32,000 bases of DNA from Fibrobacter succinogenes subsp. succinogenes S85 (GCF_000146505.1 NC_017448.1:2040001-2072000); one strand, 5' to 3'. Shown: positions 2,960 to 24,800, numbered from the stretch's first letter. Translations and numbers: made by a program. The notes: generated by a model not told the origin, from the letters alone.

Positions 2960-3439
2960 CTAAGCCTCTTCGCCAGAAACAAACGTCAGTAACGAATCAA
3001 TCGCTTTCTGCGTAATGAAGGCAATCTGATCGTAATGCGGATACACCTTGATTTCTCTCAAGGCGCGGTCTAAGTCCCAGATTCCAGAATGATACATGTC
3101 CACCACACGGAAAACCTTGTCATTCGCAACCTTGCCTACGATAACATCATAATCCTTGTAATCCAATGCCCCATCGCGGCACTTGCAGACAAAATTTATC
3201 CATTCGGTCAAATCTTCTGGAAAAGTCTTTACCGATAAATCGCTTGTAAAATCCGACATCTCGTAGATGTTCAGAACAGGACTCGCACCATCATAAATTT
3301 TTGACTTTCTTACGGCCCAGCGGATAGCCTGCTCGCGAACGGTAGTCACATAGAACCCCATCCCGAAATCAAGGGGCCTATAGGAATGGTTGATATCAGG
3401 CTTCTGCACAACCTGTATTGAGCCGTGGTAAACAATCAT
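2960..3439 (-). CDS. DUF3990-family protein
   Basis: 159 aa. The N-terminus MIVYHGSIQVVQKPDINHSYRPLDFGMGFYVTTVREQAIRWA matches the conserved DUF3990 start (hhYHGS...KPD...LDFGxGFYxT...QAxxWA). It overlaps the upstream DUF3791 gene by 4 nt. Confidence 0.65.
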   Translation of the reverse strand: MIVYHGSIQVVQKPDINHSYRPLDFGMGFYVTTVREQAIRWAVRKSKIYDGASPVLNIYEMSDFTSDLSVKTFPEDLTEWINFVCKCRDGALDYKDYDVIVGKVANDKVFRVVDMYHSGIWDLDRALREIKVYPHYDQIAFITQKAIDSLLTFVSGEEA

Positions 3440-6643: not shown

Positions 6644-7294
6644 ATGGACAAGAAGATAACTTCAGTTTCGGAATTATTAAAGGATATGGGAATTGATGAC
6701 GACGCAAGAAAGGGCGTCGATAAAGAAATCGAAAATCACATTCTTGGCAAAAATCTGATGATTCTCCGCATGAAGAACAATCTTTCTCAAGCAGAAATGG
6801 CGAAAAAAATAGGTGTATCGCAACCCTGCATTTCCAGGCTTGAATACGCAAGCAATGACCAAATTAGACTTGGCGATTTGAATAAATATGTTGCTGCTTT
6901 GGGCTACGAAACAACGCTCATTATTTCCAAACCGCAGAACATCGCACAAAAAATCAAGAATACCTACAATCAGCTTTCTGCGTTACTAACAGAGTTGCAA
7001 AAATACGCAGTTGATGATGAGGCAATTCTTCAAGGCATCGCCAAATTCGAACTGGAAGCGACCCACAACATGCTCAATCTCGCTTCTGCATTAATAGAAA
7101 GCAGTTCTTCTAAATTGAAGAAGATTCATCCTCAACAAGAAACTCAAATTATTCTTGACGATTCAATAGTTGAAAGTAAAAAGAAAAATTTGGCATTTGC
7201 TCAAGTCAAGGAAGTCGGCGGAATGGCCGACTTTTTGATTCTATTACAATTCATTTTTACGTTGCAAAAGACCACCCATCGTCTCTATTTTTAA
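6644..7294 (+). CDS. XRE-family helix-turn-helix protein (antitoxin/regulator) with a helical C-terminal extension of about 120 aa
   Basis: 216 aa. HTH LSQAEMAKKIGVSQPCISRLEYASN. GGGAG lies upstream of the ATG at 6644. The 3' end overlaps the convergent 905-aa gene by 51 nt. Confidence 0.75.
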   Translation: MDKKITSVSELLKDMGIDDDARKGVDKEIENHILGKNLMILRMKNNLSQAEMAKKIGVSQPCISRLEYASNDQIRLGDLNKYVAALGYETTLIISKPQNIAQKIKNTYNQLSALLTELQKYAVDDEAILQGIAKFELEATHNMLNLASALIESSSSKLKKIHPQQETQIILDDSIVESKKKNLAFAQVKEVGGMADFLILLQFIFTLQKTTHRLYF

Positions 7295-9961
7295 CATACA
7301 ATCAGGTAACATTTTATCCCAAGGCATATTATGAGCCCTCAAAACATACGCATGATTAGATAGACTTGAATCAAATTTCTTGTCATACAATTCAGCTATT
7401 ATTTTCCCCACATTCTCATTCACCTTATAATCATTATAAGGAACTAGATGCATCGCATTCACCTTCAAAGAATAATTTGAATTTTCCGATTCTACCTTAC
7501 TTTTCCCATATGGAATGTTTTTATCATCCAATGCGAAAATACACCTAACCTCAACTTCAACATCTTTTCCAAGAATCTTCTTATTCGTAGCCAATATCTT
7601 ATCAATTGTCGTATTAAGTCTTACATATGATCTTTCAGTTTCTTTACAATTACGGAAATAATAATTCAACATTTTCTCTGTTGAAGAACCTGAAATAATA
7701 TTATCCGTCAAAAAAATTATTTTTGAAATGGTTTTAGGTTTTTGGCCTTCAATATTCAAATAATAACCATAAATAGCATCATTTTTAAGGTTTGCATTTA
7801 ACAACCCTGCATCAATGGCCCATTTTATAATACTTCGGTCTTCTGTGATGTTTTTTGTAATAATATTCGATAGAGTTCCCCCGTCTCCGTAGCTTTCTTT
7901 GCCAACAAATAAAACATCATTACTCTCCAATTCTTTGATTTTCTTGATAAAAGTAGAATCCCATTCATCACTATTCAAAACATAATTTGAATAATATTTA
8001 TTTAAAAGCAAGTCCTTAAATTTTTCGAACCAATTTTTTTCATCCCCCGGTTTAATAAATACCTGTATGTGCCAATATAATTTAAAAATAGCCAAAGCTT
8101 TACAATCTGTTCCGTTTGTAAATCCGTACAGTTTTCGTAATTTATCTGTAAATCCAGTGTGTTCAACAATTGTAGCAATCCTAAAAAAATTTGAATCTTT
8201 TAAGAAAATATCTTTTGTTAAAGAACTTTCTTCCCTTATATTATGCAATTTTTTTAAATATTTTTCCGTATCTATCCATTTACGAGGAATAAGAATATAA
8301 TGGCTATTTTTGTTTATCGCCCATATTTTTTCTTCCTCGTAATCATTTATATTATCATCTTCATTCTCGCACTTAATTACACTCGCGTCAATTCGATGAG
8401 AGTCGACATAAAATAAATTTTTTCCTTTATTTTTCTTTATTTCAACAGAAACAATATTTCCTTCATGTTCGGAGAAATATTCTTTCCTCAGCAAATTTTC
8501 AAAAAAAACTTTTATATCGCCATTACAAGGCACATAGATTTGATAAGGCATAATTAGCTTCGGAACCAAATCCATAGAAGTATTTTCGTCATAACGATCT
8601 GGATTTACATATTTTTTTATAAAATTAAAATAAAGGATAAGCGCATTTTCAATCTTTCCATGCTTTTCATTTTCTTCAATAAATCGTTTAAAAAGAGCAT
8701 TTTGATAAAACTCATCGTCAGTCAACGTTTTAATACATTCTAAATATTTCGTATTTTGAACGCAATCATCACCTGTTAAGTTTGCAAAAAATTCAGCTAA
8801 AAAATCTATTGTAAGAATATTTGTTTCTAATCTATTTTGTTTAAGAATTACACCTCTTATTCCATTCTGACTATTTCCTATGATTTTCCAAAAATGTCTT
8901 GGTGTGCAAGGAGAGGATTTATTTTCTGATTCAACAATTTGTTTGTCTTTGAATTGATTTGTTATTTGAAGATAACGGCCATCATTTCTATCTACAATAA
9001 AGGCCTTATCAAAAAAAACATTATAACAAGATTTACTACTCACGTCGAGTAAAACATCTACTTTTGCATTTGAATTACTTCCTAAAAGAATTTCTTTTAG
9101 GGAACAAAACCTCCAGTTTTCCTGAACAGCTAAAACTATATACCATGCAATTTCTTCATTTTTAGAGTTTTTTTCAGCTTGAACTGTTTCTCCGCCAAAA
9201 TAATCTTTTTTTGTACTTCTAATAATTAAATATGATTCGTCGTGAACCATCAAAACTTGGTTTGCTAAATTGTTTTTTCCTGCAAGTGCTCCTCCTATAA
9301 AAGATCCATTATTGCATAAAAGTTCAAGAATTTTAATATTGTATTTTTGGGCAATCTCATTCACTTTTTGGCGAATAGAAACCTTGTCATCAAAATCTAT
9401 TTGTGTATAGATTTGCAACGCGAAGAAAAGCTGAATTAGATTTTCTTTTGTTGGATCCTTTGCGTCTTCAATAACTCCATCTAACAGGTCATGAATCGGA
9501 TAAACGTATGCTCCTATGTCATCCTTAATCCGAAAAATCCACGAAAATTGTTCTGTAAACTCCCCAATATGGGTATAAAAAACATTAAACTTATCTTTTA
9601 AGGTATTAAATAGCAATCTGTTCTTATTTGCTAATTCGCTTAAAAATTGTACTAAAACAATTCCATGATGAGAATAAATGTTTTTTCGTTCTTTTGCTAG
9701 AGATAAATTATTTATGTAATCAATAAAATTTTTGAATAGATTTATAGGAAAGTCTTTAGAGTGTGCAGATTCCAATTTTATTACACACGAGAGCATCCAA
9801 AAAATTCTACATATTTCTTCAATGTTTTCTTCTTTTTCAGTATTCTCGAATTTTTCAGATAGAGTTAAATTCACCAATTCAATAAGAATTTTGATTTTAT
9901 TTAAATCTTTATTTTCTAAATCTAACGACAACTGTTCTAGACGACGCTTCAACATCTTCAT
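7244..9961 (-). CDS. Large (905 aa) uncharacterised partner of the AEP-RT, with a C-terminal PRTase-like nucleotide-binding loop
   Basis: A long uninterrupted ORF in roughly 25% GC DNA. Its ATG lies 7 nt after the RT stop, and the spacer reads AAGGGAA, which is SD-like. KIIFLTDNIISGSSTEKML near aa 740 resembles the PRPP-binding loop (hhhhDDhhsTGgT) of type I phosphoribosyltransferases. I recognise nothing in the remaining roughly 700 aa. Confidence 0.7.
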   Translation of the reverse strand: MKMLKRRLEQLSLDLENKDLNKIKILIELVNLTLSEKFENTEKEENIEEICRIFWMLSCVIKLESAHSKDFPINLFKNFIDYINNLSLAKERKNIYSHHGIVLVQFLSELANKNRLLFNTLKDKFNVFYTHIGEFTEQFSWIFRIKDDIGAYVYPIHDLLDGVIEDAKDPTKENLIQLFFALQIYTQIDFDDKVSIRQKVNEIAQKYNIKILELLCNNGSFIGGALAGKNNLANQVLMVHDESYLIIRSTKKDYFGGETVQAEKNSKNEEIAWYIVLAVQENWRFCSLKEILLGSNSNAKVDVLLDVSSKSCYNVFFDKAFIVDRNDGRYLQITNQFKDKQIVESENKSSPCTPRHFWKIIGNSQNGIRGVILKQNRLETNILTIDFLAEFFANLTGDDCVQNTKYLECIKTLTDDEFYQNALFKRFIEENEKHGKIENALILYFNFIKKYVNPDRYDENTSMDLVPKLIMPYQIYVPCNGDIKVFFENLLRKEYFSEHEGNIVSVEIKKNKGKNLFYVDSHRIDASVIKCENEDDNINDYEEEKIWAINKNSHYILIPRKWIDTEKYLKKLHNIREESSLTKDIFLKDSNFFRIATIVEHTGFTDKLRKLYGFTNGTDCKALAIFKLYWHIQVFIKPGDEKNWFEKFKDLLLNKYYSNYVLNSDEWDSTFIKKIKELESNDVLFVGKESYGDGGTLSNIITKNITEDRSIIKWAIDAGLLNANLKNDAIYGYYLNIEGQKPKTISKIIFLTDNIISGSSTEKMLNYYFRNCKETERSYVRLNTTIDKILATNKKILGKDVEVEVRCIFALDDKNIPYGKSKVESENSNYSLKVNAMHLVPYNDYKVNENVGKIIAELYDKKFDSSLSNHAYVLRAHNMPWDKMLPDCMLKIETMGGLLQRKNEL

Positions 9962-9968
9962 TTCCCTT

Positions 9969-12482
9969 TTATTTTTCTAGTGATTTTGACAAGAAAATCA
10001 ATATACTTTTTTCTATGAACTCAACTCCATCATCTTTTGAAAAATAATCAACTAAACATTTTAATTGATTCTCCTTATTTTCTAATAAGGTGTTATTTTG
10101 AACCGACGTAAATAAAATCTGAATAAAATTTTTAAAATTGATAGAATTAATTGGAATTTCTTTGTAATACTCTTTATTAATAAAAAGTTGAAATAAAAAA
10201 GGAGATGAAAATAGTAATTTGTAGAATTTTCTAAAGACGCTTCCTCTTCCCATATCAGAAGCTGCTATTTGTTCCAAATGCTTTTTTGCAAAATCAATCC
10301 TATTTGGAAGATCAATACAATTACTCAACAAGAAATTGGCATCGTTAATACTCCATTCTCCATTTCTTAAAACAAATCTATCCATTGCAAAACACGGATC
10401 TCCATCAAGTAAAACACTTTTTTCTTGCGTAACATCATACATCAATTGATTTAGACGACCAAATTCTTCTAATTCTTCTAATGACAAATTCGAAATTTTA
10501 CCATAAATCTTTGTTTTTTCCTTGTTAAAGAAAAGACTATTTTTTTCAAAAAAAGAAGCTAATTCCATCAAAATTTTTTCACCATCCAGCGTTGAGTCAT
10601 AGAAAATATACATATCATCCACATATCTAAATATTTTTACTTTGTTAGACAAAGTAATATTTTTTTCAATAAATTCATCAACTATAGAATCAAGAATAAA
10701 TTCTACAAGAACTCTAGCATAAGCTGGACCTTGTGGAACGCCTTTTTGAGAGCCTACAGCATTAATCATTAGTCGTTCGTTGAATGAAATAAGGTAATTG
10801 CAAATATTTGAAATTTCTTTTCCTATTTTTTCTTTTTTGTCAATACTTTTCAGCAAAGTGTTTTTTAGAGAGCTCAAAAAAATGCTATCATAACAATTTT
10901 TTAAATCAGCCTTAATAAAGCCGAAATCTTCAAATAGTTTTAGATTAAAAAACACAGATACATCTTGGATAAATTTACTCCATGAATTTATCCAAGGAGA
11001 AAAAACATCGCCGCCCTCTGATAAATTTAAATGGTAGCTATAAGACTTGTAATCTTTTTGTATGCGACTCACTAGTTCAAAAATAAGTGCAGTAGTAAGA
11101 ACTCTTTCTTTCACCCCAAGTGATATCATTATTCGTTCTTTTTTTTCTTCTTTTCGCAAAAAAGACATATAATCTATATCAAGAGGAGTTTCCGCTTCAC
11201 CAGCAATAATTTTTTTTAAAACGCTATTAGATTCAGAAATATCATAAAAAGAGAAAAAACGAAAATCTTGTTCTATTTTTAGAGAAAGAACTTCATCGTT
11301 GTAATGAAAATAGTTATTCTCTTTCTTTAAAATACTTTCAATTAAAAGAGAATCTTTACTTTTTTTTATTTCACAACTTTCAAAAGGAATGTCCATTTTC
11401 TCTAAAACAAACTCAGCAATAGAACGCTGATCCTTACAAGGAGAAACTCCATATATGCTATGTAGATATTGAATTGTCAGCGGAAAATAAACTCTTTTAT
11501 TTTTCCGAATTTCCTCATTTGTAATCTCGGCATTAAAATTCGACTGCATTTTAAATATTTGCCATAAAATTTTTTCACCTTCTCTAATATGGGCAAATGT
11601 ACCTAGCATTATTTTTCGATCACATATTGTCATTTTCCCATTAGAAATATTTCTCCATATAATTTTCAAAGCAGAATCAGATTCAAATGCTCGCTCTAAC
11701 TGTTCAAAGGAGTAATTCTCTTTGGGGGTGACAAATTGTCTTTTTACAAATTCTTCTATTTCAATTTGTTGTACATCTAGCTTAATTCTTTCTACAAGTT
11801 CTATAGGATTATTTACAGAAAATTTTTTCAAACATTCAAGTTGGCTTCTTAAAAACGACGTGTCAAATTTTTCAATTTTTTCGCAAGAGAAATTGTTTAT
11901 ATCGTTTACAAAATATGAATAAGTTCCTTTTTGATGTCGCGAAAGCGGAATTTTTACCATAGATCCATATTTGTTTTTTTTCTTTCCGCTCAATACTTTA
12001 GGAAATCTATCTAAACCATAGACCAAATCAGCCGCCAAACAAGATTTCATGCCATCCAACAATCGATCTTGTATTAAATAACCTAAGTTTTTAGGAATTG
12101 CACGATTAAATAGAATCCAAATATGAAAACCTCTTCTTCCGGAATATTCTATTATATATTTAATATTTAATGAATCTAACACCTTTGTAAAAGGAATTAC
12201 ATACTTTTCTTTTAATTCTTTTACATTCCCTCCGGCGTCCTTCTTGCAATCAAAGTCAAAACAGATCCATCTTAGCAAATCTAAATATGTCAGCTGTTGA
12301 TACGCTCCTAATGCGGCGCCTGATTTCAACATTTTTTTTATTAAAAATGGAGTTACCGTTGCTTTGGTTGCTATATAAATACCATCGTCTCTTTGCACTC
12401 CAACTACAGTGTCATTGGTGACAAATTTTTGAAAAAGTTCATTTGATACTTCATCCAATAACAAATCCATAGAATCTTTCAT
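9969..12482 (-). CDS. Fusion protein: N-terminal archaeo-eukaryotic primase (AEP/PrimPol) domain + reverse transcriptase (UG/Abi or DRT-like)
   Basis: 837 aa. AEP motifs in order: ICFDFD (DxD), YSGRRGFHIWILF (SGxGxH, compare eukaryotic PriS SGRRGVHCW), GLDRFP...GSMVKIPLSRHQKG. RT motifs: FIKADLKNCYDSI (A), KGVPQGPAYARVLVEFIL (B), FRYVDDMYIF (C, YxDD), FNKEKTKIY (D). The ATG lies 3 nt after the mod stop. Confidence 0.85.
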   Translation of the reverse strand: MKDSMDLLLDEVSNELFQKFVTNDTVVGVQRDDGIYIATKATVTPFLIKKMLKSGAALGAYQQLTYLDLLRWICFDFDCKKDAGGNVKELKEKYVIPFTKVLDSLNIKYIIEYSGRRGFHIWILFNRAIPKNLGYLIQDRLLDGMKSCLAADLVYGLDRFPKVLSGKKKNKYGSMVKIPLSRHQKGTYSYFVNDINNFSCEKIEKFDTSFLRSQLECLKKFSVNNPIELVERIKLDVQQIEIEEFVKRQFVTPKENYSFEQLERAFESDSALKIIWRNISNGKMTICDRKIMLGTFAHIREGEKILWQIFKMQSNFNAEITNEEIRKNKRVYFPLTIQYLHSIYGVSPCKDQRSIAEFVLEKMDIPFESCEIKKSKDSLLIESILKKENNYFHYNDEVLSLKIEQDFRFFSFYDISESNSVLKKIIAGEAETPLDIDYMSFLRKEEKKERIMISLGVKERVLTTALIFELVSRIQKDYKSYSYHLNLSEGGDVFSPWINSWSKFIQDVSVFFNLKLFEDFGFIKADLKNCYDSIFLSSLKNTLLKSIDKKEKIGKEISNICNYLISFNERLMINAVGSQKGVPQGPAYARVLVEFILDSIVDEFIEKNITLSNKVKIFRYVDDMYIFYDSTLDGEKILMELASFFEKNSLFFNKEKTKIYGKISNLSLEELEEFGRLNQLMYDVTQEKSVLLDGDPCFAMDRFVLRNGEWSINDANFLLSNCIDLPNRIDFAKKHLEQIAASDMGRGSVFRKFYKLLFSSPFLFQLFINKEYYKEIPINSINFKNFIQILFTSVQNNTLLENKENQLKCLVDYFSKDDGVEFIEKSILIFLSKSLEK

Positions 12483-12485
12483 ATC

Positions 12486-14405
12486 TTACACCACCTTCAC
12501 GGTTGTATTTGGGCTGAGGGTTTTGAAGATTTCGGTGACATTGATTTTGGCGGAGTCGCTTTTGAAGCTGGAGTCACGGAAGACGGCGCGGAGGGGCTTG
12601 GTTGCTGCGATTTGGCGGATGGCGGCTTCGGGGATGTCGCTTGCAAAGCAGGCGACTAGGTCGCCGTCATTGACGTTATAGACTTGGAGGTTTTCGATGG
12701 TTTCGGTTTTGATGGGGAGCGAGAGCGGGACGCCCCAATCGACGAGGCAGCCGAAGAGGAGGTCCATGTCGGTGCGGCCGTCCTTGATGTTGCTGATTTG
12801 CTCGACGAGGTCTTGCTGGGAGATTTCGCCGGCGGAGTAATAGACGTCCTTCATGTTGGAGTCATCGATTTTCAGGACGCGGAAACCGATGTCCAACGGT
12901 TTTGCAGTTGTGGGCTTGTCACTTGCGCTATCAAACAGGTCCGTTTTGTCGGCGGCAGATTTTTCTTTGGCTTGTTGTTCTGCAAGGATTTTATCGCCTG
13001 CGCGGCGGATGCGTTCCTTACCGATTTCGCAAATGGTCTTGTAGCCAGCCTTTGCGGCTTCAGAATTTTCATCGCATTTTTCTGGAAGTTGAACCATGAT
13101 GAATTTGCGATGGCCGCCGTCTTCAGCATTCAATTGCATAACGGCATGAGCAGTTGTTGCAGAGCCAGAGAAGAAGTCTAAAACAATTCCAGACGGGTCT
13201 CTTAATAGAGCCAACATATTTTGGACAAGTTCTATTGGTTTTGGAGTATCGAAAACCTGAATTCCATTAAATAGCTCTTTTATCATTGCCGCAGATTGAC
13301 GAGTTGTTCCATATTTTGGTCCATCCCATAAATTTTCAGGAGTTCGCCCCACTTGATCGTTCAAATAAATTTTTCGTATAATGCCACTAAAATCACTTTT
13401 AAACTTAATTTCACCCGTAGAAATTTTTTCTTTGATTGATTCTTCCGACCATCTCCAACCTTTTTCTGGAGCCTTTATCACATTTCCATTTGGAGCAACA
13501 ATATCATAGCACAACGTTTTTCTGTAATTTGGACTGCGGACATCCCCACTTCGCCACAAGCCCTTCGGATCGTTATCAGGATTACTGTAATTTACATTAT
13601 CTTCAGCAGTCCTTTCCATATAAAATCTTGGCAATTGGTTCATATCGTGAGCATACACGAACGTATGATTATACTGTCTTGAAAAATGAAGTTCATCATT
13701 TTTGCTTTGTTGTGTATGTTTCCATATGACATTTGCAACAAAATTACTTCCACCAAACACTTCGTCGCAAATCTTTTTCAGGTTCGCTTGTTCGTTATCG
13801 TCGATGCTGATAAATATCACGCCATCGTCGGTGAGCAGGTTGCGGGCGAGCAGCAGGCGGCTGTAAATCATGGAACACCAGTCGGAATGGAAACGGCCGT
13901 TGCTGTCGGAATTCTGCACCATGCGATTTCCTTCGTCGTCCACGGCGCCGCTTTCTTCGGCGTACTTGGCGCTATCCATGCGGAAGTCGTCTTTGTAGAT
14001 AAAGTCGTTTCCGGTGTTGTAGGGCGGGTCGATGTATATCATCTTGACCTTGCCCAGGTAGCCCTCTTGCAGGAGTTTCAGGGCTTCGAGGTTGTCGCCT
14101 TCGATGTAGAGGTTCTCGGTGGTGTCGAAGTTCTTGGATTCTTCCACGCAGGGGCGCAGCGTCTTGCGGATGGGTTTCGCGGCTTCTACCATGGCGTCGC
14201 GCTTGCCGACCCAGGTGAATTCGTAGGACTCGTCGCCTTCCGCGACGCTCTCGCCGAGCATCTGCTTGAGCGCATCGAAATTCACCGCCTTCTTCAGCTT
14301 GCCATCCTTGGCCTTGCTTTCGGTCACGCAATTCGGGAACAGCGCAGCAATCTTCTCGACGTTCATCTGCACCATATCGGGAGTTTCAAACTTCATCTTT
14401 TCCAT
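12486..14405 (-). CDS. mod: Type III R-M Mod subunit, beta-class N6-adenine DNA methyltransferase
   Basis: 639 aa. Motif IV MIYIDPPYNTGNDFIYKDDF is N-terminal and motif I VLDFFSGSATTAHAV is C-terminal, with a central variable region between them. That is the Type III Mod architecture. The flanks are GC-rich and the centre is AT-rich. Confidence 0.9.
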   Translation of the reverse strand: MEKMKFETPDMVQMNVEKIAALFPNCVTESKAKDGKLKKAVNFDALKQMLGESVAEGDESYEFTWVGKRDAMVEAAKPIRKTLRPCVEESKNFDTTENLYIEGDNLEALKLLQEGYLGKVKMIYIDPPYNTGNDFIYKDDFRMDSAKYAEESGAVDDEGNRMVQNSDSNGRFHSDWCSMIYSRLLLARNLLTDDGVIFISIDDNEQANLKKICDEVFGGSNFVANVIWKHTQQSKNDELHFSRQYNHTFVYAHDMNQLPRFYMERTAEDNVNYSNPDNDPKGLWRSGDVRSPNYRKTLCYDIVAPNGNVIKAPEKGWRWSEESIKEKISTGEIKFKSDFSGIIRKIYLNDQVGRTPENLWDGPKYGTTRQSAAMIKELFNGIQVFDTPKPIELVQNMLALLRDPSGIVLDFFSGSATTAHAVMQLNAEDGGHRKFIMVQLPEKCDENSEAAKAGYKTICEIGKERIRRAGDKILAEQQAKEKSAADKTDLFDSASDKPTTAKPLDIGFRVLKIDDSNMKDVYYSAGEISQQDLVEQISNIKDGRTDMDLLFGCLVDWGVPLSLPIKTETIENLQVYNVNDGDLVACFASDIPEAAIRQIAATKPLRAVFRDSSFKSDSAKINVTEIFKTLSPNTTVKVV

Positions 14406-14451: not shown

Positions 14452-17148
14452 TTACACACTATGAAAACGCCTTTCTAAATCATCAACAGTATTCTTCAAT
14501 TTTTTATATACACCCAAGAATGTATTATCTTTTTTCAAAAATTCCAAAATATTTAATGTTGAACGGATTGACGAATAATATGTTTTTGGGGGATAGCCAT
14601 CAATAAGCTTCTCAACCAATTTACAAACCTCATTTTTATTTTTCTTAAGATTAAAAGCAATTAAATAAAGATGATAATTTGTAGTGTTAATGAACTGTCC
14701 AAAGTCATTATTCTCCATTTTACTTATTTTTTGATTTACAACATATTGCTTTATAATTTTTTGACAATTTTTATCTGATATCTGGTATAATTCAAGTAAT
14801 ACATTTTGAATGAATTCTATTTTTTCTTTCTCAGAATAATCATCAATATTTCGAATTATATTATGAATAATATAATCAGAAGTAAATTTAGATTTAAGAA
14901 TACGGCCACAATAGTAAAGATTGTATAATCTATTCCATGACAATGCTGTTTCTTCATAACCGTTCATTTTTTTGCAAATAAATTTATTTAACAAATTTTC
15001 CAACAATGTAATAATTTGTTTTTGATTAAATGAACGTGAGTATAGATTCCACTGAATAGCAAAAAAACTATTGATTGCGCTAAAAATAACAAGGGTATTC
15101 TTAGCTTCATTCACCAGACGATTTAGTATGGCCCATATTTTCTTATATAATTCATCCGATAACTCATTTAATGATAAGATGAAAAGTGCTTTTTCTATAT
15201 ATCCATCAAAATTATCCCAAATAGAATAGGATGTTCTATCAATAAAATGATTCACACAATTTTTTATTACAGAATCAACAAGCCAATTTAATAGATCCTG
15301 GTCTAAAGCCAAATTCTTCCTTTTGCCTTTCTTTTGAAAATCTTCAAATAGGTATTTTAAATCATCGCTCTTATAATATTTGATGCATACATACAAATCA
15401 ATTTTACTTAAAGTAATTTTTTTCTTTTTCTGCTGTTGTAATAAAGCTATTGACACATAATTTTTGCATAATTCACGATAAATTGAAAAACCTTCTATGC
15501 AAATACCATTTAGTAGAACAAAATCAATCAGATTTTGCAATTCAGATTCCGGTTTATTTTCATTTGACGAAAAAACCATTCCTCCACGATCGATAATTCT
15601 GTAATTCTTTTCTTTTTCCTTTACATTTGTAAAAGACTCAAATTGAAATTTGTAAAGATCAAGCATCGTTAAGAAATTCTTCATTTCTTCACAATCTCTT
15701 TGAGCATCTTTAGGGAAAAAGCTATACTCTATATCTATTGAAAACCGACTTTCCTGCTTAAATTTTATTTCAAGGTCACTTATATATTTTAGTTCATTTA
15801 AAAGAAGATTGTGATTAAAAAAACCTACAAGCAAATAAAGATAATTATGTTTTCTTTTGCATAACGAAATCATTCGCCTATTACACTCAAAAGCATCTTC
15901 AATTCTACCTAGATTTCTGAAACAGACAATATTCCTAAGAACAGAAGAAATATCATCCTCATCCCTTTTTATTGAGTAATCAAAATTTATTATTGCAGAC
16001 TCTTCACGTACATTATTTTCTGTAAAAAGGCGATATTTATAACAATTTTTTTCATCTATAGATGTCACAAATCCTGTAATATTGGCTTTAGCCAGTATAT
16101 TACATATTCGGTTAATTTTTTCATCACATCCACTCAATTCTTTTATAAAATTTTGGTATATTTCTTTTCTCTTCTCATCTTCTTTTTCTCTAAAGTTATA
16201 CTCATGAAAATGCAGGATACCTCTTTTTTGTGAATCGTATAATATTTCACTATTTTTTAAAGAATTGCAAATATTCTTTTGTAATGCTACATAGTAGTTA
16301 TCGTATTTCTTTATTTCGTTATATACATATTCAACGGGATTTTGAGAAAAATCAGTTGGCGTCCCAAGTTCCGTTAAAAAACTTTTTAACGACTCGGTTC
16401 GATTTTCGTTTTCAACAACAATTGTGATAATTCCAAATTTTTCTAAATACCTTTCCGAAAATTCGTCATACTTATTGACCACCATATAAATAGGGGGTTG
16501 GACTGTAGAATGATTTTGGAACCAGTTTACAATTTGTTTTAAGTCTATATCGCTAAACGAGTACCCTATCATTACAATAGTATGAGTGGATACAATACTC
16601 TTTATATAATTTTCTATTAAAGGAAAATTGTTTGAGTAATTGAGATAATCATCTTCAGTAAAAATATAATTGTCGTGGTGAAAATCACCATGCATTTTAA
16701 TAATCTTATTGTCGTTCTTTGATTTAATTAATTCATTATCAGAAGCAATAACATCATAGATATAATTTATTTCTTCTTCTATACAATTTTCAAAAAGACA
16801 ATCCCAATTTGTTGTAATTATGCAGTGTGGTCGTAATTTTAAGATAGCTCGTTGAATATCAGATGGAATATCTTTTGTGGGGAAGCAACTACCAACAGTA
16901 CTCTTTAATTTTAATGGTCCATACTTTAAAGCATAAAGTTGAGCAATTTTTAAAGGATCAGAATCCTTGCATCCAATAAGGCCTCTCTGCAACTTTTTTA
17001 ATATATCCGACCATAGTGGATATGTATCACCAGAGGCAGAGGCCCTAGACACTCCCGAACCAACAAAAAATGCCAATTTGTGTTCCGATAAAGATTCTTT
17101 TATCAATCTATAGTATTCAATATTTTTGTCAACAATAGAATTAGCCAT
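14452..17148 (-). CDS. SIR2_2-domain protein with a long helical C-terminal region (DSR1/DSR2-like defence-associated sirtuin candidate)
   Basis: 898 aa. The N-terminal roughly 260 aa carry SIR2_2 landmarks: KLAFFVGSGVSRAS, YPLWSDIL, CIITTNWDCLFE, IIKMHGDF, VMIGYSFSDIDL. The remaining roughly 630 aa are low-complexity helical. A hand-counted sample gives about 28% GC. Confidence 0.8.
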   Translation of the reverse strand: MANSIVDKNIEYYRLIKESLSEHKLAFFVGSGVSRASASGDTYPLWSDILKKLQRGLIGCKDSDPLKIAQLYALKYGPLKLKSTVGSCFPTKDIPSDIQRAILKLRPHCIITTNWDCLFENCIEEEINYIYDVIASDNELIKSKNDNKIIKMHGDFHHDNYIFTEDDYLNYSNNFPLIENYIKSIVSTHTIVMIGYSFSDIDLKQIVNWFQNHSTVQPPIYMVVNKYDEFSERYLEKFGIITIVVENENRTESLKSFLTELGTPTDFSQNPVEYVYNEIKKYDNYYVALQKNICNSLKNSEILYDSQKRGILHFHEYNFREKEDEKRKEIYQNFIKELSGCDEKINRICNILAKANITGFVTSIDEKNCYKYRLFTENNVREESAIINFDYSIKRDEDDISSVLRNIVCFRNLGRIEDAFECNRRMISLCKRKHNYLYLLVGFFNHNLLLNELKYISDLEIKFKQESRFSIDIEYSFFPKDAQRDCEEMKNFLTMLDLYKFQFESFTNVKEKEKNYRIIDRGGMVFSSNENKPESELQNLIDFVLLNGICIEGFSIYRELCKNYVSIALLQQQKKKKITLSKIDLYVCIKYYKSDDLKYLFEDFQKKGKRKNLALDQDLLNWLVDSVIKNCVNHFIDRTSYSIWDNFDGYIEKALFILSLNELSDELYKKIWAILNRLVNEAKNTLVIFSAINSFFAIQWNLYSRSFNQKQIITLLENLLNKFICKKMNGYEETALSWNRLYNLYYCGRILKSKFTSDYIIHNIIRNIDDYSEKEKIEFIQNVLLELYQISDKNCQKIIKQYVVNQKISKMENNDFGQFINTTNYHLYLIAFNLKKNKNEVCKLVEKLIDGYPPKTYYSSIRSTLNILEFLKKDNTFLGVYKKLKNTVDDLERRFHSV

Positions 17149-18865: not shown

Positions 18866-20065
18866 CTATAATTTTTTGGATTTCTTCTTTTTTGGGGGAC
18901 ATATTCTCCAAATGAGCGTATCTATTCCGGCAAGATCTTTCACATAATTTGAATTTTGTCTTACAACAGAGCGCAACCTCCTTGCCAAATCAATATACTT
19001 TTGACCTTCTGTTCCCCCACGATCTAAGGACCACTCATTCTTTTTTATCCACGTTTTTACAGGATCGTTTAAAACAGGGTATTTCTTCGGGAAGAACTGG
19101 CACAACATTTCGGATAACCAAGCTTTTCTCGCGGGATTTTTCCTTTTGGCTAATAGGTCAATTTTCTTCGCCACCAATTCATCTAAATCCAGAAGACTCA
19201 TTTTCTTTTCATTTTCAATGATATCTATCAAAGCCGTAGTTGCTTCTCGCCAATTAATATTCTTTGTGCAGATTCTTTCAACACCACTTCCTTGAAAACG
19301 GAAGCAGTCTTCTTCCTCCCATCTTCTATGCCATAATTGAGTAAATTCAGTCCAAAAAGCAGCGTTACTCATCGATCCGGTTGCATTTGATCTTAATAAA
19401 TGAAGAATTTTTGCCTTTTTTTCTTTGAAAAGTTCTTGTTTGTATTCTCGTTCATTCAGGAGATCTTTAAAGTCCTTTTCCCAGGGTAATTTAATATTCA
19501 AATCAATTTGATCTAATGTAATTTCACCTTTAACTCTTTTTCCACCTATTTTGCTCTCTTCATATCTTGCAATCCAACTCTTAGAAATAGGATCCGATAA
19601 TTTGATACAACCATTAAACCACTGCACTATCCTTTCGTATTCTTCCTGTTTTATACTACTAAAACTATTTATCTCATAATTTTCAGACAACGCTGCACTC
19701 GTCATATTAGAAGAACCGATTAAGGCAAAACATTCCTTTCGTTCTTTCCAAATTAATACCTTGGGATGAAACGTATTCTCGTTCGACGGGAAAGCAAACA
19801 CATTTCCGCGCAAATTTCTTGGAAGCCAATCCAACAGAGACTGACAAGCCGCCTTTCTCGTCAGGCCAAAATTTGTTCCCACCAGAGCAACGAATTTCTT
19901 GCAATCCTTCTTTGGCTTTTGAGAAAAAGACCAGTCTGTCAAAAAAGCTGTGGCGATGTAGATTTCCTCAGCTCGTTTAAAAGCTCTATTGTATAGAGCT
20001 TTTAGATTTTCGTTATCTTTGGGATTGAGAAGTACTTTCATAATGAACAACTTCCTGTTATGCAC
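18866..20065 (-). CDS. PLD-superfamily (single HKD) nuclease-like protein with an uncharacterised C-terminal domain
   Basis: 399 aa. The HKD region is FHPKVLIWKERKECFALIGSSNMTSAAL (HxK...GSxN). An alternative ATG at 20041 (MKVLLNPKD) would remove the 8-nt overlap with the upstream gene. Confidence 0.7.
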   Translation of the reverse strand: MHNRKLFIMKVLLNPKDNENLKALYNRAFKRAEEIYIATAFLTDWSFSQKPKKDCKKFVALVGTNFGLTRKAACQSLLDWLPRNLRGNVFAFPSNENTFHPKVLIWKERKECFALIGSSNMTSAALSENYEINSFSSIKQEEYERIVQWFNGCIKLSDPISKSWIARYEESKIGGKRVKGEITLDQIDLNIKLPWEKDFKDLLNEREYKQELFKEKKAKILHLLRSNATGSMSNAAFWTEFTQLWHRRWEEEDCFRFQGSGVERICTKNINWREATTALIDIIENEKKMSLLDLDELVAKKIDLLAKRKNPARKAWLSEMLCQFFPKKYPVLNDPVKTWIKKNEWSLDRGGTEGQKYIDLARRLRSVVRQNSNYVKDLAGIDTLIWRICPPKKKKSKKL

Positions 20066-20522
20066 CAGAGCTATGATTTCTTTTTTCTTCGCGAGCTTTT
20101 AGCCATGCATTTACACCCATTTTCAATACTATAAATAATAAAATTCCAATAACAGGTCCTATAAAAACAGATGCCGTACCAACAATTCCTGCAATAGCTT
20201 CTGATATTTTAGCGACAACAGCATACTGAATTATATTAGTATCCGCCAGCAATGTTGTTATTTCGTTCTTATATTTGTCATCTCCTCGCAAAAGTAATTC
20301 TAATTCATCCAGAATTCTTTCTAAAGTAGGTGTCTGTGGAGCCTCAGATCCAAAAGGAGCAGTGCTATTATTTGTTACACAAAGCCATTCTCTAGCAACT
20401 TTTTCGTAGTCGCCTAAATTAGCATACATTGTTGTTATCATGGACTGCTGATATTTTGGTATAGTTTGAAGCCAGGAATCTGTACCATACTGTTCTAATA
20501 GAGCAATAAATTGTTCATTCAT
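20058..20522 (-). CDS. Small protein (154 aa) with a C-terminal hydrophobic, probably membrane-inserting, segment
   Basis: The soluble N-terminal roughly 100 aa are followed by AIAGIVGTASVFIGPVIGILLFIVLKMGVNAWL and a basic tail KAREEKRNH. Its start shares one base with the protease stop (TAATG). Confidence 0.6.
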   Translation of the reverse strand: MNEQFIALLEQYGTDSWLQTIPKYQQSMITTMYANLGDYEKVAREWLCVTNNSTAPFGSEAPQTPTLERILDELELLLRGDDKYKNEITTLLADTNIIQYAVVAKISEAIAGIVGTASVFIGPVIGILLFIVLKMGVNAWLKAREEKRNHSSGA

Positions 20523-21169
20523 TATAGCATCTCCTTAATATATTCTGCAGAAATGGCATGAGTTGTTTGATGTAATGTCATAGGATCAATTCCTCCTAAA
20601 CTAATTCCTCCTGCACCTTTGGGTACATAGGAGCCAATTAACATCCCCACAAGCATATTATTGTAAATAATCGGACTTCCTGATTGCCCTGGTCGTGATT
20701 GAATATTCAAAACAATATTTTTCATTTTTATTCCAGCTCTTTCAATCAACACTTTTGCTCCCACATTTGCATTTTGTTGAGTCAAAACCATTCTTCCGTA
20801 GTTGCAGTGAGGATATCCAAAGAGAACTACTTCCTCTCCAACTTTTATCGAATCTAAAGAAGACGTTATGAGTCTCGAAGAAGCTGATCCACTGGATTTT
20901 AGAACACATATATCATGAATCGGATCGAATTCCGCAACTTCAAGAGGAAAACACTTTCGATTATTAATAGAGGTATCTTGAAATTCCTGTATAGTTTCCA
21001 TATCATTTAAAACAATTGCCAATTTTTTTTCATTTCCCGCAATTACATGAGCGGCAGATACAAAGTATCCAGGCTTTTCACTTAGAAAAACTGTGCCCAA
21101 TAACGAAAAATTATGCCCTTCAATGCGCGCTATAGGAAATACTATTTTCGAAATATCCGAAAAAATCAT
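20522..21169 (-). CDS. Trypsin-like (S1/Trypsin_2) serine protease with no signal peptide
   Basis: 215 aa. Catalytic triad context: VSAAHVIAG (His), IHDICVLK (Asp), RPGQSGSPII (Ser, GxSGxP). No N-terminal hydrophobic leader is present. Its start shares one base with the DUF4391 stop (TAATG). Confidence 0.8.
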   Translation of the reverse strand: MIFSDISKIVFPIARIEGHNFSLLGTVFLSEKPGYFVSAAHVIAGNEKKLAIVLNDMETIQEFQDTSINNRKCFPLEVAEFDPIHDICVLKSSGSASSRLITSSLDSIKVGEEVVLFGYPHCNYGRMVLTQQNANVGAKVLIERAGIKMKNIVLNIQSRPGQSGSPIIYNNMLVGMLIGSYVPKGAGGISLGGIDPMTLHQTTHAISAEYIKEML

Positions 21170-21840
21170 TATTTCATCTCCTTTTCCAATTTCTTTATCT
21201 CGGCCCTAATTTCCACCTGTCTGTTAAACTGTTTTTCGTTGGCGAGTTTCTTTTCCAGTTTTTCGATTTGAGCCTTGATTTTGGCGTTTTGTTTATTTTG
21301 TAAAATATAATCTTTTAGAGACGGCTTGGGTTGTTCCGCTTCTCCCTTCGGCAAGCTCAGGGAGCTTAAACTCGCAACGGCATTTGAGGAATCTGCACTG
21401 CGGACGATGGATTCGTAGATTTCGTCCATGTTGCTGCCAAACAAATTAAATACGGGTTCGGCGATGGGTTTCCACGGTGTTTCGAAGGATTCCAGGAAGG
21501 TTTCGTCCTTCTCTTTTTCTTTGAAGTTCACGAAGAGTTTCGCCTTGTCGTCATAAGTTAACACGAATACGTTGTGGTGGTGCAAATTCTGGTCGATGAA
21601 CTCGAACAACTTGCGCGGGCACTCGAACGACTTCATCTTGACTTCAAAGACATCGATTTCGTTTACCAGCAAACCCTTTTCTGCGGCCATGGTCTGCGCG
21701 GTCAGCTTATTTTGCCAGACAATCTGTTCTACATACTTGACAAAAAGGTTCTTGGTCGCCGTATTCACGGCGCACTTGCTATAGAACTTTTCCTTGGGCA
21801 CCACCTTGCCCACGAATGTCGAAGAGGGCAGGTTTATCAT
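21169..21840 (-). CDS. DUF4391-family protein
   Basis: 223 aa. MINLPSSTFVGKVVPKEKFY...VEQIVWQNKL...VNEIDVFEVKMK... matches my memory of DUF4391 N-termini. It has an ATGA overlap with the SNF2 helicase stop, which is the usual genomic partner. Confidence 0.6.
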   Translation of the reverse strand: MINLPSSTFVGKVVPKEKFYSKCAVNTATKNLFVKYVEQIVWQNKLTAQTMAAEKGLLVNEIDVFEVKMKSFECPRKLFEFIDQNLHHHNVFVLTYDDKAKLFVNFKEKEKDETFLESFETPWKPIAEPVFNLFGSNMDEIYESIVRSADSSNAVASLSSLSLPKGEAEQPKPSLKDYILQNKQNAKIKAQIEKLEKKLANEKQFNRQVEIRAEIKKLEKEMK

Positions 21841-24800
21841 TTTACCACCAGGAATGTCACGAGTTCAAAATCGTCCAGACCGCGGATTTCGCCGGTGAGT
21901 GCGGTGGTCTCGCCTTCGCCAAAGAGACTGTCGATATCGGATTCTTCCTTGACTTCGATAATCGAGGCGATTGCCTGCTGCAAAAGGTCGCTGTACTTGC
22001 CCATCTTGCGGCCGTCAGCAGTTTCCTTGTTGAAGGCCTTGCAGAGTGCTATGTCGGGCGTGGCAAGCCCGCGGCAAGCGTGGCGCATCAGGTCAAGAAT
22101 CTTCTTTGGCGAAAGGTGGTTGCAAACGACGCTGCCGTCTTGCTTCAGGTAAACCATGTAGAAGGGGTGCAGGCGATTCTTGCTGCGGATATTCACGGCG
22201 TTGTTGCGTTTGCGCAAAATGTAAATCACGCCGGGCGGCAATTCGCCTGTTTCGTCGGCATGCACGAGCGCATAAATTCCCGTGGGCGCATTTTCAACTT
22301 CTTGATGGGTTTCGCGATATTGCAGCAAGTCCATGCGGAAATCGTTCAAGCCCAAATCCACGATATTCACGCCGCCCTTCATGTCTTCAAGGTCAACTAC
22401 GTCTTCTTTCAACTTGCGCAGTTGTTCCTTGCGGTATTCCAAGTCGCCCTTCTCTTCGGCGCTGATAGGGTTGTCATCGCCAGTGGCGGTCATCACCGAA
22501 ATTTTCATGCGGGCGACCACACGCGATTTCAGGTTGATGTATTCATCGAGGCTCACGTTGGGCCAAAAGTTCACCAGCTGGATTTTTGCATTCTTGCTGC
22601 CGATACGATCTATACGGCCAAAGCGCTGGATAATGCGCACCGGGTTCCAGTGGATGTCGTAATTGATTAGGTAGTCGCAATCCTGCAAGTTCTGGCCTTC
22701 GCTAATGCAGTCCGTCGCAATCAGCAAGTCGATATCGCCCGGAACAACGTTCCTGAGCAAATGGCGTTCCTTGGACTGCGGCGAAAAATACGTCAGAACC
22801 GTATCGTAATCGGCTCGCAAATTCGGGAGGTTCGTACGGCCATCCATATCGCCCGTCACCAAAGCCGTATGAATTCCATACTCTTTGTTCAATCTCGCAG
22901 AGAGCTGTTCATAAAGGTATTTCGCAGTATCGGCAAATGCCGTAAACAAAATTATCTTCTTATTCCCAGGATTAATTGGGGCTTCTATCTTGTTGCAAAT
23001 TCGGTCATAAAGCGTCTGAAGTTTTGCATCATGTTCAGGCGAAAGCTGCTCGGCAATCTTTTGCAACTGTGCAAGTACGCCCAATTCTTGGCGGAGTTCG
23101 TTCAGCCAGCCAATGTAATCCATATCGGCCAAATTGAAGTGCACATCCTTGCCGACGGTAAATTCGTCATCTTCCAGGGCCGCGCTATCGATATCGTAAA
23201 TAACATCTGCATCTGCGGCCTCTTTGCCCGCATCAACACATCTCTTGTAGTTCTCAATCTTGTCAACTGTTTTTTGAACCAGTTCGTGATAACGGTCCAA
23301 TGTCAGCCTGAACGAATAGACGGAACTTTCCAGGCGCTTGAGCATGTTGATGCTCATGAGTTTCCGAATGCCCATTTCGCGGCCAAGCAACAAATCCTTT
23401 TCTTCGGAACTGTCGATATAGCCCTCGATACGGCTCGGGTGCACAAATCGCGCCGGACTATAAACGCTCATCTGCAATTGACTCAACAACAGATAAATGC
23501 TATCGAACGAGATCCCCGCCAAATCAGTCAATTCGGGAGATTCCGAAATAGGCGGCAAACGCTCCGGGAACTTACCCACTTCATTGATGTCGTAAAATTT
23601 TTCGATATGCTTGCGGGAACGCGCAATCGTCACCGAATCAAGCAGCTCAAAAAAGTCAAAGTTCAAAGTATCTAGAAGAGCCTGCGTTGTTCGCTGAGAA
23701 GCAGGGAGTTTTGCCCATGCATTGTAAGCACTCTGCGCCTGCTTAAAAATGGAATCAATGCCGTTGTTCAAGTTCAGCAAAGAATCCATCTTTTCCGAAT
23801 CGTCTTCGTAAGCCAAACGCAACTGATTCTTCAAATCGTTAAAGCGATTATTCACCGGTGTGGCCGAAAGCATCAGCACTTTCGTTTTCACGCCTTTGCG
23901 AATGACCTGATTCAACAAGCGCTGGTAACGATTTTCCTTGCGATCGGCATCGTCGTCAAAATCATGAACCGAAAAATCCTCGCCCGTCGCTGTGCCGCCA
24001 TTACGGAAATTATGGGATTCATCAATCACCACAAGGTCGTAATTGCTCCAAATAATGCGGCTCAAGTCAAGGCCATTCGTGCTCCCCGAATCGCGCGAGA
24101 GATCCGAATGATACAGTACGTCGTAACGGAAGCGGTCCGTAACAAGCGGGTTGTTTGTTTGGTTGTTCTTGAAGGTCATCCAGTTGTTGTTCAACTTCTT
24201 GGGGCAAAGCACCAACACGTTCTTGTTGCGGTTTTCGTAATACTTGACCACCGCAAGCGCCGTAAATGTTTTGCCTAGACCCACGCTATCGGCGAGAATG
24301 CACCCGTTGTATTTTTCCAACTTGTTGATGATGGCTAGGGCCGCATCTTTCTGGAAGTTGTAAAGCTTTTTCCAAATAGCACTTTCCTTGAATCCCGTCG
24401 CCGAATTCGGCAGAACATCTTCACTGATGTCGTTCAAGAATTCATGGAAAATATTGTAGAGCGTTACAAAGTAAATGAAGTCGGGAGAATTTTCCTTATA
24501 GACCGTGGCAATGCTATCCATAACCGCCTGGGTCACTTCTTCAAACTGCGATTCATCAAACCAGCATTCATTAAACTTGTTGATATAGTCATTGGAAAGA
24601 GGCGCCGAAACCCTCATGCTGAAATTGGAAATGTTGTTGCCTTTTTCTACACCAAGGCCCACCGCCGAAAACTCATTGAACGGCGTATAAAGCGCGTCAT
24701 CATCGGGCTGCTTTACATGCATAAACGTCTGATAGTTCAAGTCGGTTATGTTCGTCCGGAATTTTACCTTCTGGCGAATCCATTCCGCACACTCCACTGC

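Follow-up and report, generated by a model that had tools for sequence, protein, structure and literature searches.

A probable separately encoded arch protein with a PRTase-like C-terminal domain in a UG10-small (DRT7-type) locus of Fibrobacter succinogenes S85

Reverse transcriptases (RTs) of the UG10 group carry a domain of ~800 aa, which is present either as a C-terminal fusion (UG10-large) or as a separate coding sequence, cluster 1038 (UG10-small) (Mestre et al. 2022, PMC9226505). The name arch domain, or arch protein for the form encoded downstream of the RT, was given to this element in a study that solved the structures of Escherichia coli DRT7 and of the UG10-small core of Streptococcus salivarius; the S. 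salivarius arch protein was not produced and could not be cloned into pET28, 'likely due to toxicity' (Figiel et al. 2026, bioRxiv 10.64898/2026.02.16.706125). According to the DRT7 papers cited here, the E. coli core produces poly(dT) primed by Tyr and, with its primase, poly(dA), and the arch element is a regulatory scaffold over the primase-RT core that blocks or modulates the primase. C-terminal truncations of E. coli DRT7 abolish DNA synthesis or defence in the same papers; the deletion delta666-1776, which also removes alpha-Rep, abolishes defence, and delta1458-1776 was among the truncations tested (bioRxiv 10.64898/2026.04.18.719102). Here we have analyzed a stretch of 32,000 nt from Fibrobacter succinogenes subsp. 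succinogenes S85 (GCF_000146505.1, NC_017448.1:2040001-2072000), called the window below, in which an open reading frame (ORF) of 905 codons at 7244..9961 on the minus strand directly follows a primase-RT gene of 837 codons on the same strand (9969..12482). We estimate at roughly 80% the probability that the product of this ORF acts in trans as the arch subunit of a UG10-small (DRT7-type) anti-phage system with two genes, the equivalent of the ~940-aa arch domain that UG10-large carries as a fusion with the primase-RT.

The class of the RT is clear. The 837-aa protein has the Pfam domains AEP-TOTE and RVT_1, and its residues 5-836 align to positions 1-823 of the 824-position PADLOC model RT_UG10_small with an E-value of 1.6e-290; on RT_UG10_large, a model of 1688 positions, its match covers the first 799. 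Its primase residues D76 and D78, its RT residues Y620-V-D622-D623 and its Tyr682 align with D68/D70, YVDD 624-627 and the priming Tyr682 of E. coli DRT7. These catalytic and priming positions are conserved throughout 23 aligned sequences (the window RT, E. coli DRT7 and 21 other UG10 proteins), except that Y620 is replaced by F in two of them. Because the primase DxD, the YVDD and the priming tyrosine are all kept, the 837-aa core looks, from its residues, like an active DRT7-type enzyme. The nearest relatives of the RT that were found are only 25-39% identical to it. A preliminary description of this DNA had suggested that, if the RT belonged to a nominally single-gene family, the second gene would define a new two-gene variant or a new effector. 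This did not hold: the RT is UG10-small (DRT7), a form already known with a separate ~800-aa partner (PMC9226505; bioRxiv 10.64898/2026.02.16.706125), and so the locus is neither a new two-gene variant nor the source of a new effector family. The gene pair is a Fibrobacter copy of the known two-gene DRT7 form, horizontally acquired into a defence island. A model for the UG10-small partner is missing from PADLOC v2, and automated annotation therefore shows UG10-small systems as a lone RT.

The partner protein was compared by hhalign with a UG10-large set composed of a 1879-aa Bacillus thuringiensis plasmid protein, eleven further UG10-large proteins and a 1776-aa E. coli protein. The last of these (WP_096936834.1, our locus L027) served as the E. 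coli reference; it scores 1920 bits on RT_UG10_large and carries the published DRT7 landmarks (DFD 68-70, YVDD 624, Y682 and D970). Two blocks of the partner are homologous to the fused arch domain. The first, aa 180-383, aligns with UG10-large positions 1068-1286 (probability 98.5%, E 3.1e-15), corresponding to about 1026-1251 of E. coli DRT7, within module 2 (991-1271). The second is formed by the C-terminal ~280 aa, which align with the last ~290 aa of UG10-large (probability 96-97%, E 7e-11 to 2.6e-9); this block comprises aa 623-905 of the partner and about 1482-1774 in E. coli DRT7 numbering, that is, modules 4/5 of Figiel et al. and the C-terminal domain of Song et al. The C-terminal profile also matches E. 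coli DRT7 residues 1592-1677 (E 2.3e-9), and the C-terminus of the PADLOC RT_UG10_large model is matched both by the family consensus (E 1.3e-14, positions 1437-1605) and by the domain from the window (E 1.5e-6). The split point coincides as well: the RT of the window is 837 aa long and the arch domain of E. coli begins at residue 837. An AlphaFold2 model of the full-length partner (pLDDT 89.9, pTM 0.87) starts with a helical N-terminus and continues through a beta-rich block, helices and small beta-sheets to a helical bundle and an alpha/beta domain, which is the order described for the E. coli arch domain. The ~600-700 N-terminal residues, for which no nameable match had been seen at first, are the counterpart of the DRT7 arch domain, with the homologous block at aa 180-383 (probability 98.5%). 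As this domain has been described as a regulatory scaffold, the name 'effector' for the protein as a whole is a conjecture.

The individual parts of the protein can be placed on the minus strand as follows. The N-terminal part (aa 1-181; 9419..9961) is modelled as helices only and gives weak Foldseek matches to HEAT/ARM repeats; its assignment comes from collinearity and from the split point. The mixed alpha/beta part at aa 182-399 (8765..9418) contains the first hhalign block and corresponds to arch module 2, or MID, of UG10-large. It is followed at aa 400-559 (8285..8764) by helices and then small beta-sheets (502-557), presumed from the secondary structure of the model to be the counterpart of the primase-gating arch module 3; in E. 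coli this module has two beta-sheets at 1370-1435 (Figiel et al. 2026, bioRxiv 10.64898/2026.02.16.706125). A module-4-like helical bundle (aa 560-677; 7931..8284) precedes the PRTase-like (phosphoribosyltransferase-like) core. The last ~55 residues of this bundle, from aa 623, lie in the aligned C-terminal block, and aa 560-622 were placed by the model and by collinearity. Short matches in the PDB of the full-length profile to designed PPR repeats, at aa 422-464, were treated as helical-repeat noise.

The association of the two genes is a general property of the family. An exhaustive HMMER search of 1.84 billion proteins yielded 68 cluster representatives homologous to the partner at E<=1e-3; an earlier word-indexed search had found only 4 close relatives, and a second one, with the C-terminal alignment as query, had found none. 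Nearly all full-length relatives in this 68-representative family are 850-935 aa long, and there are no RT fusions among them. When one genome per species was scanned with the RT, 22 loci were obtained, mostly from Lachnospiraceae and other gut or rumen anaerobes. At each of the 19 loci where the RT is intact and DNA is available downstream, the RT is directly followed by an ORF that matches the partner profile (E 1e-45 to 1e-213); left out of this count are L003, where the contig ends, and L021 and L022, with degenerate or partial RTs. The two ORFs overlap by 4-29 nt or are 1 nt apart in 18 of the 19, and the remaining locus has a gap of 120 nt, under a first-start-codon rule. Conversely, a look-up from four distant partners found a gene for an AEP-TOTE+RVT_1 protein of 834-855 aa directly upstream in each case (4/4). 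Co-occurrence of partner homologues with AEP-RT genes, which had been named beforehand as a test of the pairing, was thus observed at 19/19 and 4/4 loci; wherever it was found, the arch protein invariably lies directly downstream of a UG10-small RT. None of the genes flanking the pair in the window recurs in the 22 loci. The adjacent Type III Mod gene was considered as a part of the UG10-small unit and rejected, as it has no homologue in any related locus.

Some loci depart from the usual form. The broken or partial UG10-like primase-RT remnants at L021:2238-3259 and L022:6252-7289 have no arch homologue nearby, consistent with joint loss. The Roseburia-type arch proteins (L011, L012 and L013; 8520-11645) are 1041 aa long and have ~160 extra residues, without a Pfam match, after the PRTase-like domain. 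A Desulfovibrionaceae arch homologue (L006:4520-6808) of 762 aa ends at position 753 of the 882-position profile and lacks the R-x-x-N-x-P tail described below; it may be a truncated or decaying copy.

The 905-aa ORF is present at 7244..9961 as first described, and its product is 100% identical to Fisuc_1296 of F. succinogenes S85, the source of the window. A frame of 905 codons open by chance at such a composition has a probability of about 5e-34. The junction with the RT gene (9953..9971, minus strand) reads TAA (9971-9969), AAGGGAA, ATG (9961), AAG, ATG (9955). The preliminary description had read this junction sequence correctly and had placed the start at ATG 9961, 7 nt past the RT stop and behind AAGGGAA. 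This start is the less likely one: since the database entry is 903 aa long, and the close homologues, of 903 aa or shorter, have alignments that begin at Met3, translation more probably begins at the second ATG (9955), and the product would then have 903 aa. Seen from ATG 9955, the GGG of AAGGGAA is at a normal Shine-Dalgarno distance of 8 nt, and 13 nt instead of 7 separate the start from the RT stop. The shared AT-richness of the two genes, from which a single coupled unit had been proposed, was borne out: RT and partner have 29% GC each, against a GC content of 42% over the window and of 48% in the neighbouring Mod gene, and the ORFs are tightly coupled. A GC-rich hairpin (7209..7236), 8 nt downstream of the partner's stop codon, is likely to mark the end of the RT-partner transcription unit; it has a T-run on the plus strand only, so termination on the minus strand would be an extrapolation. 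Promoter and terminator scans performed no better than on shuffled sequence. On the plus strand, a Cro/C1-type helix-turn-helix (HTH) ORF (6644-7294) is convergent with the partner gene, the last 51 nt of which it covers. The same hairpin, terminator-like on the plus strand with its T-run, falls within the last 86 nt of the HTH ORF, and because of this the annotated C-terminal tail of the HTH ORF may not be real.

The C-terminal part of the partner (aa 678-905; 7247..7930, minus strand) comprises a PRTase-like alpha/beta domain and a C-terminal tail. Modelled separately, aa 615-905 have a pLDDT of 89.6, and a Foldseek search with this model against a PDB copy lacking the DRT7 structures returned type I PRTases as all of the top 24 matches (best E 1.9e-4, probability 0.99; TM-scores only 0.2-0.4). 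With the full-length model, nine of the ten top matches are PRTases. Pfam and PADLOC scans with the whole partner protein found no match, and it was only queries with the domain or the consensus that gave them. Pfam PRTase-CE (PF24390) is the best Pfam family for the domain, and no other family recurs across queries. The domain of the window scores 19.6 bits (E 9.3e-4) when scanned alone, the family consensus 26.5 bits (E 7.3e-6), the Lachnospiraceae homologue L001 28.2 bits, which is above the cut-off of 27, and the C-terminus of E. coli DRT7 20.1 bits. The PADLOC models of retron PRTase_III-A effectors are matched by the consensus (E 1.9e-6 and 6.6e-5), by the E. coli DRT7 C-terminus (E 4.7e-5) and by the window protein (E 0.014). 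A Retron-Eco11-type effector recovered from E. coli genomes is a full-length PRTase-CE member (101 bits) and aligns with the partner domain profile over 230 collinear columns (probability 72%, E 3.4e-5). In both complete E. coli genomes carrying the RT of this effector, the effector gene is split by IS3 (L028:196-2684 and L029:1-2184) and is probably inactivated. The domain profile found no match among PDB sequences at E<=10, and no match of the partner to Pfam Pribosyltran (PF00156) was obtained. Taken together, the model and the profile matches indicate that the C-terminal domain very probably has a PRTase-like fold of the PRTase-CE branch, for which activity is at most predicted. The suspicion that the C-terminal loop belongs to a PRTase fold is therefore upheld by the structure and profile searches that had been proposed as its check, which gave type I PRTases, PRTase-CE and PRTase_III-A.

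The loop in question, KIIFLTDNIISGSSTEKML, was noted at the outset for its resemblance to the phosphoribosyl pyrophosphate (PRPP) loop of type I PRTases, and it is found at aa 747-765 (7667..7723, minus strand), inside the PRTase-like domain, as a strand, T-D and an S-G-S-S-T loop that runs into a helix. All 51 family members, only 16-25% identical overall, have D753 and G758. Residues 748-760, IIFLTDNIISGSS, fit the PRPP-loop variant hhhh-T-D-x-I-x-S-G, represented in Eco11 by VVILTDTIGSGNQ; in the Retron-Eco11-type effector the motif is matched by KVVILTDTIGSGNQ, and in a direct alignment the published Eco11 PRPP motif region KKIRKVVILTDTIGSG stands opposite KIIFLTDNIISG of the partner (PMC12746101). 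The counterpart of IIFLTDNIISGSS in E. coli DRT7 is IITDNIITGSQ (1593-1603). With a single sequence, E. coli APRT, hhalign placed the motif correctly on KVLVVDDLLATGGT, in an alignment that is not significant alone (E 0.34). At position 752 the family members have T, F or V and in no case D or E. A first core strand and loop, LFVGKESYGDGGTL (aa 684-697; 7871..7912, minus strand), contains Lys688, present in 48/51 members, and T696, present in 40/51; the order of secondary structures in the model suggests that this loop occupies the position of the pyrophosphate loop of type I PRTases. The tail motif LRAHNMP (aa 874-880; 7322..7342, minus strand), generalised as R-x-x-N-x-P, is nearly invariant (R875 in 51/51, N878 and P880 each in 50/51). 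Its sequence is reminiscent of the motif PNNxP of retron effectors (PMC12746101): position 877 is N in 13 of the 51 members, giving R-x-N-N-[MLQ]-P, while the window protein has H-N-M-P. The full retron motif is Gx14PNNxP, and the register of the family tail, R-x-x-N-[MQL]-P, relative to PNNAP (258-262 in L028) is ambiguous.

These residues can be transferred to E. coli DRT7. The motif at 1593-1603 and a conserved lysine, 1554, both lie within 1528-1681, a region that was not modelled by cryo-EM and was predicted to form a compact domain on flexible linkers (Figiel et al. 2026, bioRxiv 10.64898/2026.02.16.706125). The corresponding tail, R-x-x-S-x-P at 1743-1748, is close to V1723, F1724 and K1726, which contact the primase. 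The term PRTase is mentioned in none of the three DRT7 studies nor in Mestre et al. 2022, and the searched library contained no paper joining DRT7 or UG10 with PRTase or phosphoribosyltransferase, and none on PRTase-CE or Calcineurin-CE. Within that library, the PRTase-CE assignment of the C-terminal module of DRT7 is apparently unreported.

If the partner is an arch subunit, the system may be pictured by analogy with E. coli DRT7. Core and partner would be made from one tightly coupled transcript. The core would use its RT-like domain for poly(dT), protein-primed from Tyr682, and its AEP primase for poly(dA). The arch subunit would bind over the core in trans, its helical N-terminus extending the alpha-Rep solenoid and its middle modules presumably gating the access of nascent DNA to the primase, and the PRTase-like domain would sense the infected state or deliver a toxic output. 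Because a loop of the phosphate-binding type (D753, G758) and the near-invariant K688, R875 and N878 are kept, the PRTase-like domain is predicted most likely to bind PRPP, a nucleotide or another phosphorylated ribose ligand.

Several observations weigh against this assignment. The N-terminal 180 aa and aa 385-620 gave no hhalign signal against UG10-large (the N-terminal 190 aa and aa 385-640 were queried), so that the equivalence of the full-length protein to the arch domain rests on collinearity. The S. salivarius partner WP_104020716.1 and cluster 1038 of Mestre et al. were likened to the partner in the window by description only, and no Streptococcus entry occurs among the 10 family cluster representatives looked up for a link to the S. 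salivarius accession. With 19.6 bits, the window protein stays under the 27-bit cut-off of PRTase-CE. Its motif has a single acidic residue (T752-D753) where the canonical 13-residue PRPP motif has two adjacent ones. Finally, no UG10-small system has yet been reported to defend against phage.

The reading that competes best concerns the C-terminal domain: it might be a degenerate, non-catalytic module with a structural or nucleic-acid-binding role, such as handling of 5' phosphates or single-stranded DNA or docking to the primase, and have no small-molecule ligand. The missing first acidic residue of the classical motif points in this direction, as do the lack of a Pribosyltran match and the low similarity to solved PRTases; moreover, in E. 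coli DRT7 the core of the domain is mobile in cryo-EM and the tail beside it contacts the primase (V1723, F1724, K1726). However, invariance of D753, G758 and R875 in 51/51 members at 16-25% identity goes beyond what a structural role usually demands, and the effector of Retron-Eco11 has the same T-D variant, while inactivation of its catalytic site changes the PRPP phenotype (PMC12746101). We regard a purely degenerate fold as possible but doubtful.

Another reading makes the partner a toxic effector, with an active PRTase-like enzyme that consumes PRPP or disturbs nucleotide pools and is held in check by the core and its DNA until infection. The domain does fall in the PRTase-CE / PRTase_III-A branch, of which the activated Retron-Eco11 member lowers PRPP by about 50% in abortive infection (PMC12746101), and ShosT is a PRTase toxin (PMC11961720). 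The near-invariant D753, G758, K688, R875 and N878 suggest an active site; the S. salivarius arch protein could not be cloned alone, which was attributed to likely toxicity; and the DRT7 studies leave open how the system harms phage or cell. On the other hand, enzymatic activity is a prediction drawn from sequence and fold, the motif has but one acidic residue, and the putative site is not uniformly conserved, with N878 replaced by Ser in UG10-large. In E. coli the arch domain was assigned a steric control of the primase, and in one study no cell death was seen with DRT7. Of the 905 residues, some 600 belong to the scaffold and not to an enzyme. A role as a toxic effector thus appears unlikely, if worth keeping in mind.

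A broader proposal is that the PRTase-like domain, common to UG10-small arch proteins and to 'module 5' of E. coli DRT7, is the output or the metabolite sensor of DRT7. As an enzyme of the retron III-A branch it would deplete PRPP or nucleotides, or read their levels, and the synthesis of poly(dT)/poly(dA) would switch it on, much as a PRTase effector is controlled by retron RT-DNA. We put this forward as a speculation with a rather low probability.

The surroundings of the pair bear on a last explanation. The window is a mosaic defence island with, in this order, an SNF2 helicase, DUF4391, a trypsin-like protease, a PLD nuclease, AAA_14/DUF4143, SIR2, a Type III Mod, the UG10-small pair, HTH, GmrSD and DUF3990; the SIR2 gene and the UG10-small pair are low-GC cassettes flanked by genes of higher GC. 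Adjacency proves little in such an island (SNF2, PLD, SIR2, Type III Mod, GmrSD), but the notion that the ORF is an unrelated neighbour, or a spurious long frame, with no functional link to the RT is already refuted by strict co-occurrence, kept gene order and overlapping stop and start codons at 23 independent loci from different phyla, by homology of the partner to a domain fused to the RT in UG10-large and, for a spurious frame, by the chance probability of about 5e-34.

Other genes of the window are described here for completeness. The Type III Mod gene (12483-14405, 48% GC) stops 3 nt before the start of the RT gene (29% GC; junction 12482-12488), and the window contains no Res gene. In an unrelated locus (L030:1-1487, GCA_028748445.1), 10 nt separate a UG10-small RT from the end of the Type III Res-like gene (ResIII + RE_endonuc, 1072 aa) that precedes it. 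UG10-small cassettes may land at the 3' end of Type III restriction-modification operons, or this may be a coincidence within defence islands. Upstream of Mod, a gene at 14452-17148 (minus strand, 28% GC) encodes an 898-aa protein with SIR2_2 in the first ~240 aa only (Dsr2/ThsA-like) and no annotation in the remaining ~650 aa; it is AT-rich like the UG10-small pair, yet separated from it by the higher-GC Mod gene. Found at 18866-25139 (minus strand) are a 1100-aa SNF2/ResIII helicase, DUF4391, a trypsin-like protease of 215 aa, an ORF of 154 aa and a PLD-family nuclease of 399 aa. Of these, the protease and the nuclease, which lie in a lower-GC stretch, resemble the nuclease-protease pairs that defence systems have repeatedly acquired (PMC12799240). 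DUF3990 genes follow the UG10-small pair at a distance of a few kb, in the window (2960-3439, minus strand) as well as in an unrelated metagenomic locus (L033:8061-8531), there together with DUF3791.

The gene pair itself is ordinary, and the value of the analysis lies in the assignment of the domain to PRTase-CE, which is transferable to the C-terminal module of DRT7. The three DRT7 studies of 2025-2026 leave open the role of the arch and its C-terminus and the mode by which phage is stopped; kinship to the PRTase-like effectors of retrons, of which one depletes PRPP, yields point mutants and metabolite measurements by which these can be tested.

Comparison with the known systems defines the place of the Fibrobacter pair. 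With E. coli DRT7/UG10-large (WP_247156398.1) it shares collinear modules, two homologous blocks, a PRPP-loop-like motif and the fission at 837. It differs in that the partner is a separate polypeptide of 905 aa, whereas the fused arch domain has 941 aa, in the tail, which is R-x-x-N-x-P here and R-x-x-S-x-P in UG10-large, and in its occurrence in Fibrobacter on DNA of 29% GC. The S. salivarius UG10-small system (WP_104020715.1 / WP_104020716.1) has a common architecture with it, an RT of ~830 aa followed by a separate ORF of ~800-900 aa. Type I PRTases (APRT, UPRT, OPRT, HGPRT) have the same order of strand, pyrophosphate-like loop, hairpin, motif strand and helix, and in E. coli APRT the motif of the partner is aligned with VLVVDDLLATGGT, at a sequence similarity that is not significant; the domain in the window has in addition a helical bundle and a conserved C-terminal tail. 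The likeness to the retron type III-A effectors is that both are partners of defence-associated RTs and have in common the T-D variant of the PRPP loop and an N-x-P tail. The window protein, in contrast, lacks the winged-helix DNA-binding domain and the YYPxxLR tail of these effectors, its PRTase-like domain is fused to ~680 aa of arch scaffold, and its RT is a protein-priming enzyme of class 1 UG/Abi, not a retron RT with a non-coding RNA. Since the RT is a class 1 UG10 enzyme, no Rfam RNA family (nor any tRNA) was found in the window, and the Pfam scan of the partner found no HTH or winged HTH domain, the partner is not a retron effector but only a relative of one in this domain. ShosT, likened here by description only, likewise represents a PRTase-fold toxic arm of an anti-phage system; it differs as a toxin-antitoxin component with an added pyrophosphatase activity and without an RT partner.

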